43,023 bases of DNA from a candidate division WOR-3 bacterium (GTDB taxonomy: Bacteria > Hydrothermota > Hydrothermia > LBFQ01 > DSFT01): positions 1 to 43,023 of the forward strand of contig JALSOK010000066.1 in assembly GCA_026986535.1 (NCBI GenBank), read 5' to 3'. The translations under genes and the position numbers were made by a program. A model generated the notes under the pieces. It saw only the letters and a program-made list of their open reading frames with translations, was not told the DNA's origin and made no database searches. Shown in pieces: positions 11,321-42,182 of this stretch (positions are counted from its first letter, which is position 1; the number at the start of each line of letters is the position of its first letter).

Positions 11321-12043
11321 CTATCGGGATGAAACCCTTATATACAGCCTCACCTTCCTCTCCACAACTGCTCCGAAAACCCCCGCGGCCCCATCGATGT
11401 TTACAACATCGTTACTGCTACTCATGGCGTAATCGTACATATCCCTGTTGTATCCGATCACATAGATATCGTAGTAGCCCTCCACGGGAAAATAAGTGCT
11501 GTACCTGAGCATATCCGATACCGTATCGGCAGAGTAGTAGGAGAAGAAAGTGGTGAAACCATAAGCCAGGTTGCGGGCCTTCAACTTGTAAATCACCGCC
11601 CCATCGCTGGAAGTCCATACGATTAGAGGAGCCCCCTCCCCCACCTCCACAGTATCACCACTTTCCGGTTGCACAATGGCGAAATCTCCGGGGACCACTG
11701 TGGTCGCCCTCAGGGTATCCAGAGAATCGGGGGTTATGAGCATCAGGCTGTAGGTATCCCCGGTGAAAGGAACGAAAGGGGCATAGTAATAGGTGAGGGT
11801 ATCTATCTCGATGCCGAAGTCGAAACCAAATGTATCAGCCGAATTCCATACCCATGCCCTGGCCCCATCCATGCCGTAGGATGCCTCCTCCTCGGGGGAA
11901 TAGACACGGTCGAAGAAGAGATACTGCGTATCCAGGGGATTGTTGAGAACGAGCCATACATTGTAGGGCGGAATCTCCGGATTCTCGTATCTGACCTGTA
12001 TGCAGGCGGGCAGGAGAAAGAGAAGAGGCAGGAACCTCTTCAT
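11321..12043 (-). CDS. Lipoprotein, DUF4249-like
   Basis: MKRFLPLLFLLPAC lipobox overlapping the upstream stop; C-terminal NIDGAAGVFGA. Confidence 0.7.
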   Translation of the reverse strand: MKRFLPLLFLLPACIQVRYENPEIPPYNVWLVLNNPLDTQYLFFDRVYSPEEEASYGMDGARAWVWNSADTFGFDFGIEIDTLTYYYAPFVPFTGDTYSLMLITPDSLDTLRATTVVPGDFAIVQPESGDTVEVGEGAPLIVWTSSDGAVIYKLKARNLAYGFTTFFSYYSADTVSDMLRYSTYFPVEGYYDIYVIGYNRDMYDYAMSSSNDVVNIDGAAGVFGAVVERKVRLYIRVSSR

Positions 12044-12603
12044 TTCAATTCCAGACCGGATATATTGGACAGGGTACTCCTCAGTGCTTCGTAATCGGGA
12101 GGAGCCCCCACGATCATCTTGATGTCCGCATACTCGTTCTCTCCATCGGAGGAGATGATGAAGAAAGTAGGCGTGCCGGAAACTCCCAGTTTGAAGCCCA
12201 GCTCCATATCCCTCTCCACTATGGCCTTCCCATCGCAATTCTTCTTATCCGGCTTCACATCCTTCCCCTTTATGAGTTGCTCCTTCGCCTTGAAATAATC
12301 CCTGGAGCAGGCTATGATTTCGGCTTTTCTGCGGGCGTCCGGATGGAAATCGAGGGGAAACCAGCGGATGAATACTGCCACCTTGTCCGGGTTCTTTTCG
12401 TAAAGCTGCTTAACCAGAGGAATGGATTTTCTGCAAAAGGGACAATCGGGATCATCGAATATCACTATCTTCAACGGAGCATCCTTCCTGCCCAGAATAA
12501 GCTGGGCTTCGGATACCACTTCCCGCGCAATCTGGACAGCATCCTGTTGCTCGCTCGATTGCGCCTGAGCCTGAGAAATGAAAACTGCAAAGAGAATTCC
12601 CAT
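12040..12603 (-). CDS. DsbA/DsbC/DsbG-type thioredoxin-fold protein
   Basis: FDDPDCPFC, FPLDFHP, GVSGTPTF; TAAAAT at 12610-12615, 6 nt upstream. Confidence 0.88.
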   Translation of the reverse strand: MGILFAVFISQAQAQSSEQQDAVQIAREVVSEAQLILGRKDAPLKIVIFDDPDCPFCRKSIPLVKQLYEKNPDKVAVFIRWFPLDFHPDARRKAEIIACSRDYFKAKEQLIKGKDVKPDKKNCDGKAIVERDMELGFKLGVSGTPTFFIISSDGENEYADIKMIVGAPPDYEALRSTLSNISGLELK

Positions 12604-12622
12604 GGGAAAATTTTAAGGGAAG

Positions 12623-12696
12623 TGGGCGCGCCAGGATTCGAACCTGGGACCTCCACCGTGTGAAGATGGCGCTCTCACCAACTGAGCTACGCGCCC
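12623..12696 (-). tRNA. tRNA-Val (CAC), CCA not encoded
   Basis: Reverse strand GGGCGCGTAGCTCAG...CCATC-TTCACAC-GGTGG...GTTCGAATCCTGGCGCGCCCA. Confidence 0.96.
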
Positions 12697-12760
12697 ACCA
12701 GACTGGTATAAATTTTAAAGCAAAATCGGGCCCCCTGACAAAATCCGGACAATATGGATG

Positions 12761-13233
12761 TTATCCCTTTTTCTCATCGAGGGTCCGTATCACCCGGGCA
12801 GGAACACCGGCCACCACCGTATTGGGCGGCACATCCCTGTTCACCAGAGACATTGCTCCCACAATGGAACCCTCCCCTATCGTCACTCCCGGAAGTATCA
12901 CACTGTGCACTCCGATAAAAGCATTTTTCTTGATCACCACCCTGCCCACTTTAACATCCTCGTCCCTGGCATAGTACATGGAGTTATCGTGGGCGAGGAT
13001 TATGGACATGGCGGCTATGGTAACATTGTCCTCTATTTCCACCATGTGGGGATGCACATTGTCGATTATGCAGAAATATCCTATCTCCACATTTCTGCCT
13101 ATCTTCACTCCACGGATTCTATAGAAGAATACCCTGAGGCTCTTGTGGGAGCAAACCACGCCAGACCCTGCACTAGAACCGATACGATTCTCCTCCATAT
13201 ATTACCCCTGGCCAGCCTCTCCCTGCTCTCCAT
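12761..13233 (-). pseudogene. Hexapeptide-repeat (LbH) acyltransferase, apparently frameshifted near 13147-13149 (or a sequence error)
   Basis: The LbH core (GVKIGRNVEIG, ILPGVTIGEGSIVGAMSLV, VVAGVPARVIR) is in the 12761..13198 frame. A natural N-terminus from ATG 13233 is in a different frame. Confidence 0.6.
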
Positions 13234-13260
13234 TGCTTTAAATTTTAATTCTGCTAACCA

Positions 13261-13782
13261 CTATTTCTCCAGCTTTTTACGCAGGAGCTCGAGAGCTCCC
13301 CTGACGGCATTTTCCATGGCTTCTCCTTTGGTCTTTCCGTATCCGGTACCCCTGCCGAAGTACAGTATCTCCCCGCTGCGGCCATCCACCAGTTTCACAA
13401 CTATCTCCAGCATATAAGTGGTCCCGAACACATCGTCTCTCATGCGGGCCGTGAGGACATCGTATGTGGCCAGAATGTCTGCCTTAATGTGCTTTCCCTT
13501 TGCGCTCTGTATTCCAGAGCCCTTCGAATCCACCGGTTTGAATATACCCATATTCATCAGCTCCATAAGTAGAAGGTCGTTGAGTATCTTCAGGTCAGCA
13601 CTCCGTATGTACGGGGATGTCTCGAGGGGAAGGAGCTCCAGGGTGTACTTTCTATAGAGGTCGAACACGGGAGATATACTGCCCGTTCCGCCATAATAGG
13701 ATGTGGCGCATCCGGACAAAACCACAGCCAGCAAACTAATCCCACCCCTCACGCCAGTCATCATCTTCCGGAATATCCTCAT
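13261..13782 (-). CDS. Hypothetical lipoprotein
   Basis: ATG at 13782 follows AGGAGG; lipobox VLSGC; VKLVDGRSGEIL resembles CsgG/LpoB-like folds. Confidence 0.7.
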   Translation of the reverse strand: MRIFRKMMTGVRGGISLLAVVLSGCATSYYGGTGSISPVFDLYRKYTLELLPLETSPYIRSADLKILNDLLLMELMNMGIFKPVDSKGSGIQSAKGKHIKADILATYDVLTARMRDDVFGTTYMLEIVVKLVDGRSGEILYFGRGTGYGKTKGEAMENAVRGALELLRKKLEK

Positions 13783-41173: not shown

Positions 41174-41188
41174 GGTTACACCTCCTTT

Positions 41189-41479
41189 TTACTCTTCGAC
41201 TACTCCAAGTATTTCATCTTCCCTCATGATGAGGTACTTCTTATCCTCTATCTCCACTTCGGTTCCGGCGTACTTGGAGAAGATCACCACATCGCCTTCC
41301 TTCACATCTACGGGTATGACCTTTCCATCCTCCGTCTTCCTGCCGGGCCCAACAGCGATGACCTTACCCTTCTGGGGCTTTTCCTTTGCGGTATCCGGAA
41401 TTATGATTCCGCCCTTCTTCACTTCCTCTTCCTCTATCCTTTCGACCACAACCCTGTCGGCAAGAGGTCTTATCTTCAT
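41189..41479 (-). CDS. groES: Co-chaperonin GroES
   Basis: [35 protein letters not shown]. Confidence 0.99.
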
Positions 41480-41520
41480 GGCTTCACCTCCTGTTTTGGA
41501 GTACCTCCGATTGCCCTAAA

Positions 41521-41550
41521 ATTTTAAAGGGAGGTTAACTTTTTATGCAA
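41521..41550 (-). promoter_or_regulatory. Sigma70-type promoter of groESL
   Basis: Minus strand TTGCAT-N18-TAAAAT. Confidence 0.6.
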
Positions 41551-41649
41551 CATGTTAAGTTCCGAAACCCGGGCCGCAATGAAAACGCCATGATCCCCAT
41601 GGATTTGCCCGCAGGACTCATGCTTCTCCAGATTCGTTTTCCAGAGCGG

Positions 41650-41678
41650 AATTTTACAATTCGCCCCATTGTAAAATT
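41650..41678. repeat. Perfect 11-bp inverted repeat containing back-to-back TAAAAT boxes
   Basis: AATTTTACAAT-tcgcccc-ATTGTAAAATT. Confidence 0.85.
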
Positions 41679-41684
41679 TGAAAC

Positions 41685-42182
41685 ATGCCGCTGAGTGCCC
41701 TCATCATATCCCAGATTCAGCTCCAGCCGGTGGAGCCACCCGGAAGCCCTGGACCCGAAAGGGCGTCCGGCACTGCAATGGAGTCTCCATCCCGCTCCCC
41801 CTCGAGATTCCCCCTGTTCCAGGGAGGGGAAAAGCTGAACCACATGATAGACAGCCTCATCAGGATGGGCTTTCACCCCGTGAGGAGCAACGATTACGCA
41901 GTGGGAAGTCTCCAGTGGAGGATAGACATGTCCGCAAAGGGCTACAGGGTGCAGGAATATAGAGCGCAGGGCGTGAGGGAAGTAGTGCAGAGTCTCGATA
42001 TGGAGACCGGAAGGAAGGAGCTCATAAGCACGGACCCGATGGACATATCCCTCATTGTGGTCCGGGACACGGGGAACAGCATAGTGGAAGCCTACCTGAT
42101 ACGCAGAATCCTGCACCGCTACAGGACCGGAGAAACCGGAACGACCACCATAATCGAGAAGTTCGTCAGGAATCCGGATTGA
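41685..42182 (+). CDS. Hypothetical, probably exported protein
   Basis: TAAAAT 7 nt upstream, short hydrophobic N-terminus, Pro/Ser linker, genome-typical codons. Confidence 0.7.
   Translation: MPLSALIISQIQLQPVEPPGSPGPERASGTAMESPSRSPSRFPLFQGGEKLNHMIDSLIRMGFHPVRSNDYAVGSLQWRIDMSAKGYRVQEYRAQGVREVVQSLDMETGRKELISTDPMDISLIVVRDTGNSIVEAYLIRRILHRYRTGETGTTTIIEKFVRNPD

Follow-up and report, generated by a model that had tools for sequence, protein, structure and literature searches.

Most predicted periplasmic, outer-membrane and surface proteins of this uncultured, hot-spring-type WOR-3 bacterium and of its close relatives carry N-termini in which an uncharged run of only about 7-10 hydrophobic residues directly follows the initial Met. 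These starts are probably minimal Sec-type signal peptides for signal peptidase I (SPI) that no longer have a basic n-region and keep roughly half of the hydrophobic core. The observation is confirmed and holds genome-wide, beyond the five proteins in which a sequence-only reading of the window (the whole analysed stretch of 43,023 nucleotides) had noticed it. A literature search found no published description of this short-signal class, and standard secretion prediction would probably miss starts so much shorter than the textbook signal.

All five open reading frames singled out by that reading are present in the window, where they and their upstream elements are arranged as follows.

12040..12603, minus strand: DsbA/DsbC-like thioredoxin-fold protein starting MGILFAVFISQ, with the short signal MGILFAVFISQAQA followed by QSSEQ
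12610..12615, minus strand: -10-like box TAAAAT, 6 nt before the ATG of the DsbA-like gene (12603)
12622..12696, minus strand: tRNA-Val(CAC), found by ARAGORN directly upstream of the DsbA-like gene, with an 18-nt gap
13736..14704, minus strand: DUF4476 protein (Pfam DUF4476, 5.7e-26) starting MEILILLG, with the short N-terminus MEILILLGYAGW
14713-14718, minus strand: TATAAT box, 8 nt before the ATG of the DUF4476 gene
16799-16804, plus strand: Shine-Dalgarno motif GGAGGA, 6 nt upstream of the 16811 start
16811..18139, plus strand: repeat-rich protein with a T9SS type A sorting tail, starting MMYAMMYFLVSQ, with the short signal MMYAMMYFLVS followed by QEG
31183..32079, plus strand: protein without Pfam family, with a C-terminal hydrophobic stretch, starting MMIIYLIAG; short N-terminus MMIIYLIAGLTLPVEN
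41672-41677, plus strand: TAAAAT box, 7 nt before the ATG of the 41685 gene
41685..42182, plus strand: small protein of no known family, starting MPLSALIISQ

Each of the five genes starts at the first ATG, GTG or TTG after an upstream in-frame stop located 1-26 codons away, the gap from stop to start being 3 codons for 12603, 26 for 16811, 1 for 41685, 8 for 31183 and 3 for 14704. The earlier argument that a -10 box 6-8 nt upstream of three of them speaks against a missed longer N-terminus is borne out: the TAnAAT boxes are confirmed and the in-frame stops leave no room. The 16811 gene is led by its Shine-Dalgarno motif, and the 31183 start lies 2 nt past the stop of the preceding gene.

Longer canonical N-termini in homologues would have spoken against the short starts, and orthologues of the DsbA-like, DUF4476 and 31183 proteins instead keep them. 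The DsbA-like protein matches Pfam Thioredoxin_4 (6.7e-12) and also DSBA, and 11 of its 13 orthologues in the family and order consist at the start of Met and 5-8 hydrophobic residues, then Gln or [S/A/N]-Gln; for the other two (G151 and G108) the first-start rule picked an upstream TTG, and the short segment follows an internal Met. Orthologues of the DUF4476 protein begin MLLVLMAQ, MLILFIAQ and MLTLFFISQ, those of the 31183 protein MIFLTFLYE, MLFILSLID and MFLFLISAD. The latter protein looks like a type I membrane protein, judging by a C-terminal hydrophobic stretch that resembles a membrane anchor; its sole profile match is a sub-cut-off small-membrane-protein hit at residues 256-285. For the 16811 protein, the paralogue rows of 13 relatives (the genome's own row excluded) are a mixture of canonical, short and unclear starts, and its T9SS tail is marginal, at 23.2 bits against a TIGR04183 cut-off of 23, with no report for Pfam PF18962 at E <= 0.01. 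The codon-usage gene caller preferred the 41685 gene over an antisense frame (score 45.7). Export appears least certain for this protein, whose conservation is limited to one same-genus genome: the sole orthologue found, in the one such genome searched, is 63% identical and contains MLLSLLMIGQ.

To follow the pattern beyond the window, we defined a short class by a rule of our own, namely Met and a short hydrophobic run with no K, R, D or E in the first eight residues. The class comprises 167 of the 1502 complete called genes and is limited to runs of at most 16 residues, 18 longer cases having been set aside, so that none of its members has the uninterrupted stretch of at least about 18 hydrophobic residues of a signal anchor or N-terminal transmembrane helix. 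Positions 2-8 are 60-80% L, I, V, F, M or A, the run begins right after Met in 110 genes and one position later in 35, and the first strongly polar residue has a median position of 11. Hydrophobic runs in the uncharged N-termini average 9.8 residues, within the range of about 7-15 expected of a Sec/SPI h-region, at its low end. The class definition excludes a positively charged n-region, and likewise any Arg or Lys up to the end of the core that could form a Tat twin-arginine motif. The rule is noisy in AT-rich relatives. Applied to a 50-kb E. coli control, it retained one of 39 genes, the cytoplasmic FolK.

The cargo points to export. A Pfam scan covered the 64 class members lying in the 20 densest stretches and assigned a family to 42, of which 32 are envelope or secreted types: among others five Plug/TonB-receptor proteins, BamA, a second Omp85, LolA, LptC, PBP4, SLT, M23, NlpC/P60, RlpA-like and CcmH proteins, C25 and S8 proteases, and T9SS cargo. 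The rule also admits some integral membrane proteins (five of the 42) and cytoplasmic false positives (two, CinA and Cas1); the remaining three are ambiguous. The sequence-only reading had proposed collecting the N-termini of outer-membrane and T9SS-tail proteins from the genome and its relatives, and short starts are indeed enriched there, in 16 of 28 T9SS-tail and Plug proteins versus 151 of 1474 other genes (Fisher p = 2.6e-9, odds ratio 11.7). Seven of the eight complete Plug proteins are short. Among the 20 complete T9SS-tail proteins, nine are short by the strict rule, six canonical and one unclear; inspection by eye adds one uncharged start outside the rule (VVQSMVSFFLLFQ), two with Glu at position 3 and one probable internal short start. 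Both by family and by this enrichment, the segments thus sit at the N-terminus of proteins functioning outside the cytoplasm.

BamA shows where the segment lies. Before the strand aligning with E. coli VVKDIHFEGLQR, the genome's own protein has twelve residues and that of the sister genus eight; E. coli has 24 ahead of this first POTRA strand, and canonical families within the phylum have about 20. The short segment sits directly on the first POTRA strand, in the position of the canonical signal of other lineages. Two of 54 BamA loci from the GTDB species collection are short (L266 and L268), both in this phylum; among the other 52, 47 have K or R near the start and five are unclassifiable. 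No short BamA start was found in the phyla other than WOR-3 sampled for this protein. The trait is most pronounced in the family and order to which the genome belongs, and turns up sporadically elsewhere in the phylum.

Cargo, orthologues and BamA position together support the idea of a minimal, lineage-restricted class of putative export signals without a basic n-region. Going further, and with a little less than even confidence, we propose that an order-level WOR-3 lineage (Caldipriscus relatives) may have replaced the tripartite signal on most of its SPI-type secretome, including BamA and TonB receptors, by an uncharged N-terminal plug of 7-12 residues unanchored at the cytoplasmic face, the basic n-region being retained only on lipoproteins, for membrane retention. 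If this is true, the positive n-region would be dispensable for Sec targeting in nature, with anchoring as its main conserved role, and short signals would engage SecY and LepB in a geometry outside current structural models.

Conventional signals and a signal peptidase are encoded in the same window. The two conventional signals reported earlier, MKRFLPLLFLLPAC (12043, minus strand) and MRNLLFGTILLTPALAGAQ (15367, minus strand), were both found, their translations providing a contrast to the short class.

2213..2914, plus strand: signal peptidase I (LepB), the only one detected in the genome and its only PF10502 match (165 bits)
11321..12043, minus strand: lipoprotein with the canonical signal MKRFLPLLFLLPAC
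14756..15367, minus strand: protein with the canonical SPI-type signal MRNLLFGTILLTPALAGA, followed by QIW

In an alignment with E. coli SPase I structures (1e-30), LepB shows matching residues in the GSM, IKR and GDNRD stretches, which we take to be the sites of the catalytic Ser and Lys. LepB is the presumed enzyme processing the short signals.

The short form shares with the classical tripartite (n-h-c) Sec/SPI signal its N-terminal position, a hydrophobic core, a small residue often preceding a polar +1, and a periplasmic, outer-membrane or secreted cargo, in a genome where SecY, SecA and a P-type SPase I are present. It differs in lacking a Lys/Arg n-region, in a core that starts at residue 2, and in a total length of about 7-14 residues instead of about 18-25; canonical and short forms occur side by side in the genome. 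Textbook models would place a core of 6-10 residues at the lower limit for membrane retention of a signal, or under it, and a core of this size counts against a Sec-signal reading. Mutagenesis in E. coli, by Chou and Kendall in 1990 and by Hikita and Mizushima in 1992, is said to have found function with cores of only about 7-8 Leu, and a lost positive charge offset by higher core hydrophobicity; together with Lpp mutants from the Inouye laboratory, these studies reportedly include engineered signal peptides with a neutral n-region or a shortened poly-Leu core. In these engineered signals, as in the WOR-3 short form, a short and very hydrophobic core would offset the missing charge, and by this analogy such compensation is likely the physical basis of the short signals. 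The engineered versions, however, are laboratory mutants of reduced efficiency, whereas the WOR-3 short form is natural and in the majority for SPI-type cargo throughout a lineage.

As minimal Sec/SPI signals, these segments would consist of (f)Met directly followed by about 6-10 residues rich in Leu, Ile, Phe and Val, often Ser, Ala or Gly, and then Gln, Asp, Glu or Asn. The very hydrophobic N-terminal segment would be bound by SRP or SecA at the ribosome exit and would open the ordinary SecYEG channel. Having no charge to keep it on the cytoplasmic side, the short segment might lodge in either the lateral gate or the outer leaflet, where the single LepB would cleave ahead of the polar residue, and the exposed Gln may cyclise to pyroglutamate. 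Lipoproteins would need anchoring for Lgt and LspA to act, and they keep normal basic signals. We infer that export would both require this segment and need nothing more as a signal, and likewise infer its targeting factor, its cleavage site and the formation of pyroglutamate.

The residues around the presumed cleavage site also bear on an unlikely alternative, in which the segment directs Sec export yet stays on the mature protein as an uncleaved tag, perhaps dipping into a membrane leaflet. The site appears weakly defined. Many members show no obvious small-x-small pattern, Gln is not the first polar residue in 119 of the 167, and where it is, large aliphatic residues prevail at -3 (39 of the 48 cases have L, I, T or V there, one has Ala); the segment may also be too short to offer LepB a site in the usual geometry. 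Against retention, the first strongly polar residue is Gln in 48 of the 167 proteins; Gln makes up 2.1% of the proteome and is enriched 4-5 fold in this place, with Ser, Ala or Gly just before it in 29 of the 48. The frequent S/A-Q ending, noticed in the window as SQ, is real. Canonical signals of the same genome likewise end in A-Q or S-Q, as does the 14756..15367 signal with its following QIW, and the BamA segment abuts the first POTRA strand, at the place taken by a cleaved signal in other lineages.

Cleavage ahead of Gln by LepB, as the minimal-signal reading has it, resembles a rule known from Bacteroidetes. PMC5837995 describes a Q-rule in which Gln at +1 of SPI substrates is cyclised by glutaminyl cyclase, gives rates of 59-77% in Porphyromonas species, and states that the rule is not valid across the whole FCB group. 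Gln follows both short and canonical signals here far above its abundance, but the rate, by the first-polar proxy, is lower than these Porphyromonas figures. No cyclase was identified: a search of the genome for glutaminyl cyclase PF05096 gave no match, and its three M28 matches are known at family level only, which does not establish them as cyclases. Bacteroidetes signals, at the BamA loci examined, keep the basic n-region, unlike the WOR-3 short class.

Lipoproteins set the short class in relief. All 36 lipobox signals of the genome carry K or R (the 11321..12043 lipoprotein is outside this count, the caller not having called its gene), and with a median of 15.5 residues before Cys they are short as well. 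The strict lipobox rule retrieved none of the 167 short signals; eight have Cys at positions 8-16, none of them in a good lipobox. This sharp split, with 36 of 36 lipobox signals canonical versus 16 of 28 SPI-type cargo proteins short, would be compatible with two entry routes, as would the very hydrophobic cores (median best 7-residue Kyte-Doolittle score of 2.83). It is nonetheless improbable that non-lipoproteins leave by a route other than SecA/SecYEG and LepB, be it strictly SRP/YidC-dependent or undescribed, as short and canonical signals occur on paralogues within the one genome (T9SS cargo, propeller proteins and TonB receptors) and no extra export machinery came to light in a survey that covered SecA, SecY and LepB. 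SecA and SecY are both present. Of the compensating changes that had been envisaged in SecA, SecY and LepB, none was seen in SecY, which does not differ at the positions compared, presumably those of the pore ring, the plug and the prlA sites, and gives no sign of an adapted translocon; all three proteins look ordinary.

It is very unlikely that the hydrophobic N-terminus serves something other than export, for instance by attaching cytoplasmic proteins to the membrane or by marking proteins for stability or degradation. Room for such a role is left by the 22 of 64 sampled members without a family to place them, but 32 of the 42 family-assigned members are proteins that have to be exported, and this segment is the only N-terminal signal on them.

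Start choice or broken genes, finally, could mimic the pattern if the true N-termini were longer (missed starts, frameshifts) or shorter (cytoplasmic proteins), since the caller always takes the first ATG, GTG or TTG, 33 of the 167 genes have more than 15 open codons upstream, and CinA and Cas1 are clear false positives, but this explanation is largely refuted by in-frame stops within 5 codons in 89 of 167 genes (within 10 codons in 114), by promoter boxes or Shine-Dalgarno motifs at the proper distance, by recurrence in orthologues at 40-60% identity in genomes of 29-52% GC, and by the canonical signals that the identical procedure yields for BamA of other phyla and for E. coli.

A TAnA[AC]T box or a Shine-Dalgarno motif stands at the proper distance from 107 of the 167 starts (56 boxes and 51 motifs, one gene having both). 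The commonest stop-to-start gap is 3 codons, which would fit the TAA of the box itself acting as in-frame stop ahead of a 6-nt spacer. Across the genome the box lies upstream of 376 of 1502 genes, 56 of the short class and 320 others. About a third of short-signal genes thus resemble the leaderless-mRNA starts of GeneMarkS-2 'group C' type genomes, but the suggested tie between short signals and leaderless translation does not hold: the box lies 5-9 nt upstream of 56 of 167 short-class genes (34%) versus 12 of the 36 lipoprotein genes, whose signals are canonical (33%). With equal shares in both sets, leaderless starts and short signals coexist, uncoupled.

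The short N-termini of this genome (1.74 Mb in 160 contigs, estimated to be 96% complete), in which Met is followed by a hydrophobic run free of charged residues, are best explained, on sequence grounds, as a natural class of minimal signals for the Sec pathway and signal peptidase I, with export and cleavage both predicted. Such a signal would consist of (f)Met and a short, very hydrophobic core without an n-region; a small residue, then Gln, would often come next. Export itself, its targeting factor, the cleavage site and the formation of pyroglutamate are what we infer from these features. 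In mutagenesis of E. coli signals, cores of 7-8 Leu can reportedly work, higher hydrophobicity making up for the absent charge, which provides a plausible physical basis for short uncharged signals. The five open reading frames that the sequence-only reading had singled out for their ultra-short N-termini are all present as it described them.

Features of the window (coordinates, strand, description)
2213-2914, + strand: LepB, signal peptidase I, the genome's only PF10502 match
11321-12043, - strand: lipoprotein, example of a canonical signal
12040-12603, - strand: DsbA/DsbC-like thioredoxin-fold protein (Pfam Thioredoxin_4, 6.7e-12; DsbC/DsbG matches weak)
12610-12615, - strand: -10-like hexamer, 6 nt ahead of the ATG of the DsbA-like gene
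13736-14704, - strand: DUF4476 protein (family match)
14713-14718, - strand: -10-like hexamer, 8 nt ahead of the ATG of the DUF4476 gene
16811-18139, + strand: T9SS type A sorting-tail protein (TIGR04183, marginal at 23.2 bits against a cut-off of 23)
31183-32079, + strand: protein without family, starting 2 nt past the stop of the upstream gene
41672-41677, + strand: -10-like hexamer, 7 nt ahead of the ATG of the 41685 gene
41685-42182, + strand: protein without family, with a -10-like hexamer ahead of its start

Gene calling with a custom codon-usage model yielded 1646 genes, 1502 of them complete and at least 80 amino acids long. Two criteria, no Lys, Arg, Asp or Glu among residues 1-8 and a mean Kyte-Doolittle value for residues 2-9 of 1.5 or higher, selected 185 genes, and 167 of these have a hydrophobic run of at most 16 residues and make up the short class. 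Leu, Ile, Phe and Val predominate at positions 2-8. The run starts directly behind Met in 110 genes against one position later in 35, and Met1 should be kept, since residue 2 is Leu, Ile, Met, Val or Phe in 123/167 proteins. A less likely, rival explanation is that the run acts as an uncleaved export tag. The first strongly polar residue lies at a median position of 11 and is Gln in 48 of the 167 proteins (Gln accounts for 2.1% of the proteome); Ser, Ala or Gly precedes it in 29 of these 48. A pair of T9SS-tail paralogues, each about 780 amino acids long and encoded elsewhere in the genome (C57:11361 and C101:6082), have the conserved short N-termini MTIWILAMPLWVQGHEV and MIWLMSIPLWVHGHPV, whose Gly-His ending, in place of Ser/Ala-Gln, may represent a second flavour of junction.

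The cargo bears on another rival, a role of the short N-termini unrelated to export. The T9SS sorting-tail domain PF18962 matches 22 frames of the genome, 20 of them complete; 9 of the 20 are short under the strict rule. Reading by eye added four more, namely one uncharged start missed by the rule, two short starts with Glu at position 3 and one probable internal short start, while six carry signals with Lys or Arg and one is unclassified. Plug-domain proteins number nine, and seven of the eight complete ones are short. The strict rule places 16/28 T9SS-tail and Plug proteins in the short class, compared with 151/1474 of the remaining genes (odds ratio 11.7, p = 2.6e-9). A Pfam family could be assigned to 42 of 64 short-class proteins, sampled from the 20 stretches richest in such genes, and the other 22 remained without family. 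With compartments that we assume from general knowledge of the families, 32 of the 42 are envelope or secreted types. They include BamA and another Omp85 protein, five Plug/TonB-receptor proteins, LolA, LptC, TolB-like and BamD-like proteins, PBP4, SLT, M23, NlpC/P60, RlpA-like, CcmH and ChaN proteins and C25 and S8 proteases. The remainder comprises five integral membrane proteins, two cytoplasmic false positives (CinA and Cas1) and three ambiguous cases.

Lipoproteins of the same cell behave differently. A strict lipobox search of the genome retrieved 36 signals, all with Lys or Arg; these, too, are short, with a median of 15.5 residues ahead of the Cys. The short uncharged type is thus found in 0/36 lipoproteins against 16/28 of the exported set of the signal peptidase I type (p = 6e-8), and it is therefore specifically non-lipoprotein cargo that has lost the n-region. 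Its presence on lipoproteins suggests that the basic n-region persists where Lgt and LspA need an anchored signal, and the contrast points to a specific role of the n-region in membrane retention. Two lipobox-like starts without Lys or Arg, MILLFIVGC and MQLIPLIIVILGC, occur in a 100-kb sample of G108, a genome of the sister genus.

Among the 30 best-matching BamA loci of the genome's class, readable starts are nearly all short, some with a single Lys. When aligned with E. coli BamA, the protein of the own genome has 12 residues ahead of the strand equivalent to VVKDIHFEGLQR, and that of the sister genus has 8; E. coli itself has 24, and canonical families of the phylum have about 20. BamA from another 20 families of the phylum is short and uncharged in 8, canonical in 10 and unclassified in 2, and a quick SecY tree has well-supported branches that force at least three changes of this label. 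BamA alone is a weak proxy for signal type, and a poor one outside the genome's own order; TonB receptors were counted as well.

Short TonB-receptor signals by genome
G108, from the same family: 3/5, and one more that is short but contains a single Lys
G138, from the same order: between 2 and 4 of 5
G006, from a different family of the class: 0/3
G039, from a different class: 0/4
G096, from a different class: 1/4

The N-terminal rule, run on 100-kb samples of 12 other genomes, agrees in direction with these counts: the short-class share is 11% in the own genome, 10% in G108, 8% in G138 and 0-11% in other genomes of the phylum, the rule being noisy in AT-rich genomes. The trait is therefore most pronounced in the genome's family and order, with scattered occurrences in the rest of WOR-3. 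GC content is not the driver, since it is about 52% in the own genome and 29% in the sister genus. Beyond the phylum, 54 BamA loci were drawn from the GTDB species collection, covering among others Bacteroidota, Ignavibacteriota, Calditrichota, Omnitrophota, Verrucomicrobiota, Zixiibacteriota, Desulfobacterota and Alphaproteobacteria. Two are short, both from the WOR-3 phylum and one of them labelled Candidatus Hydrothermota, and no short start was seen among the samples from other phyla. Lys or Arg stands near the start in 47 of the remaining 52, and 5 are unclassifiable.

The export machinery bears on a further rival, a non-classical route. The only LepB detected has E. coli signal peptidase I structures among its matches, at 1e-30, and the residues agree across the GSM, IKR and GDNRD stretches. 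Its gene shares the window with the five proteins, and it has one N-terminal hydrophobic segment. SecY is present, as is SecA, split over two contig ends (C2:20444-21346 and C12:4801-5073), which seems to reflect the assembly and not damage to the gene. Compensating changes in the translocon, which the sequence-only reading had proposed to look for, did not emerge from SecY: a comparison of 25 short-type with 10 canonical-type genomes, weak because the type was assigned from BamA, shows no difference at what we take to be the pore-ring (including residue 191), plug and prlA positions. Four columns (E. coli positions 104, 190, 196 and 197) separate the groups in a pattern inseparable from shared ancestry. 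Positions 190, 196 and 197, which adjoin the presumed pore-ring residue 191, are Leu, Leu and Asp in the short-typed genomes and mostly Ile, Ile/Val and Ala in the canonical ones, with the same inseparability from ancestry. A genome search with PF05096 for a plant-type glutaminyl cyclase was negative, and the three M28 matches are at most candidate cyclases.

The remaining rival, an artefact of start-site choice, is largely excluded. Each of the five starts is the first ATG, GTG or TTG past an in-frame stop lying 3 (12040-12603), 26 (16811), 3 (13736-14704), 8 (31183) or 1 (41685) codons upstream, so that a longer canonical N-terminus cannot hide there; the sequence-only reading had argued this for three of them, from their -10 boxes.

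Of 13 DsbA-like proteins from relatives in the family and order, 11 start with Met and 5-8 hydrophobic residues, after which comes Gln or [S/A/N]-Gln (MLIFFLIAQ, MMLLLISQ, MLLLLVSQ and alike), most with a TAnAAT box upstream; in G151 and G108 the first-start rule takes an upstream TTG, and the same type of segment lies behind an internal Met. Orthologues of the DUF4476 and 31183 proteins keep this type of start. The 41685 protein has an orthologue only in the same-genus genome, whose copy contains MLLSLLMIGQ, and paralogues of the 16811 protein in relatives are a mix of canonical, short and unclassified starts.

Frequent Gln at +1 has been described as confined to Bacteroidetes and a few relatives, and the available passages of that paper make no mention of short signals (PMC5837995). 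The term 'signal peptide' does not occur in two WOR-3 genome papers (PMC12542636, PMC12285271). Full-text searches of mainly non-subscription literature yielded no account of short uncharged signals across a whole lineage. Essential outer-membrane proteins with half-length, uncharged signals would offer a direct test of what the translocon, SRP/SecA and signal peptidase need, and would supply engineering with very short export tags of natural origin. The n-h-c model underlies every secretion predictor and much of the teaching on Sec targeting; for WOR-3 and related uncultured lineages, predicted secretomes and inventories of 'extracellular enzymes' may fall far short of the true number.

A link between short signals and leaderless translation, also suggested by the sequence-only reading, was not borne out. 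The -10 boxes noted for three of the starts do lie 6, 7 and 8 nt ahead of their ATG, and GGAGGA stands 6 nt upstream of the 16811 start. Genome-wide, a TAnA[AC]T box 5-9 nt ahead of the start accompanies 56/167 short-signal genes, 12/36 lipoprotein genes and 320/1335 of all others; exported proteins of both kinds are thus leaderless modestly more often. A Shine-Dalgarno motif precedes 51/167 short-signal genes.

Several relatives have the DsbA-like gene directly behind a tRNA gene. In the window (12604-12696, - strand) and in the same-genus genome, 18 nt separate it from an upstream tRNA-Val(CAC), and a TAAAAT box of its own stands in this gap. In two sister-genus genomes (G119 and G112, loci L089 and L090) its ATG follows the 3' end of tRNA-Asn(GTT) by 1 nt; at these loci, trimming of the tRNA 3' end in a co-transcript might be enough to produce a nearly leaderless mRNA. 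Elsewhere in the window, a 666-residue open frame (39527-41527, + strand) runs antisense to a real gene of 543 residues (39542-41173, - strand) that scores 262 in the codon-usage caller; very long shadow frames thus occur in this genome, so that length alone is a poor guide to genes.
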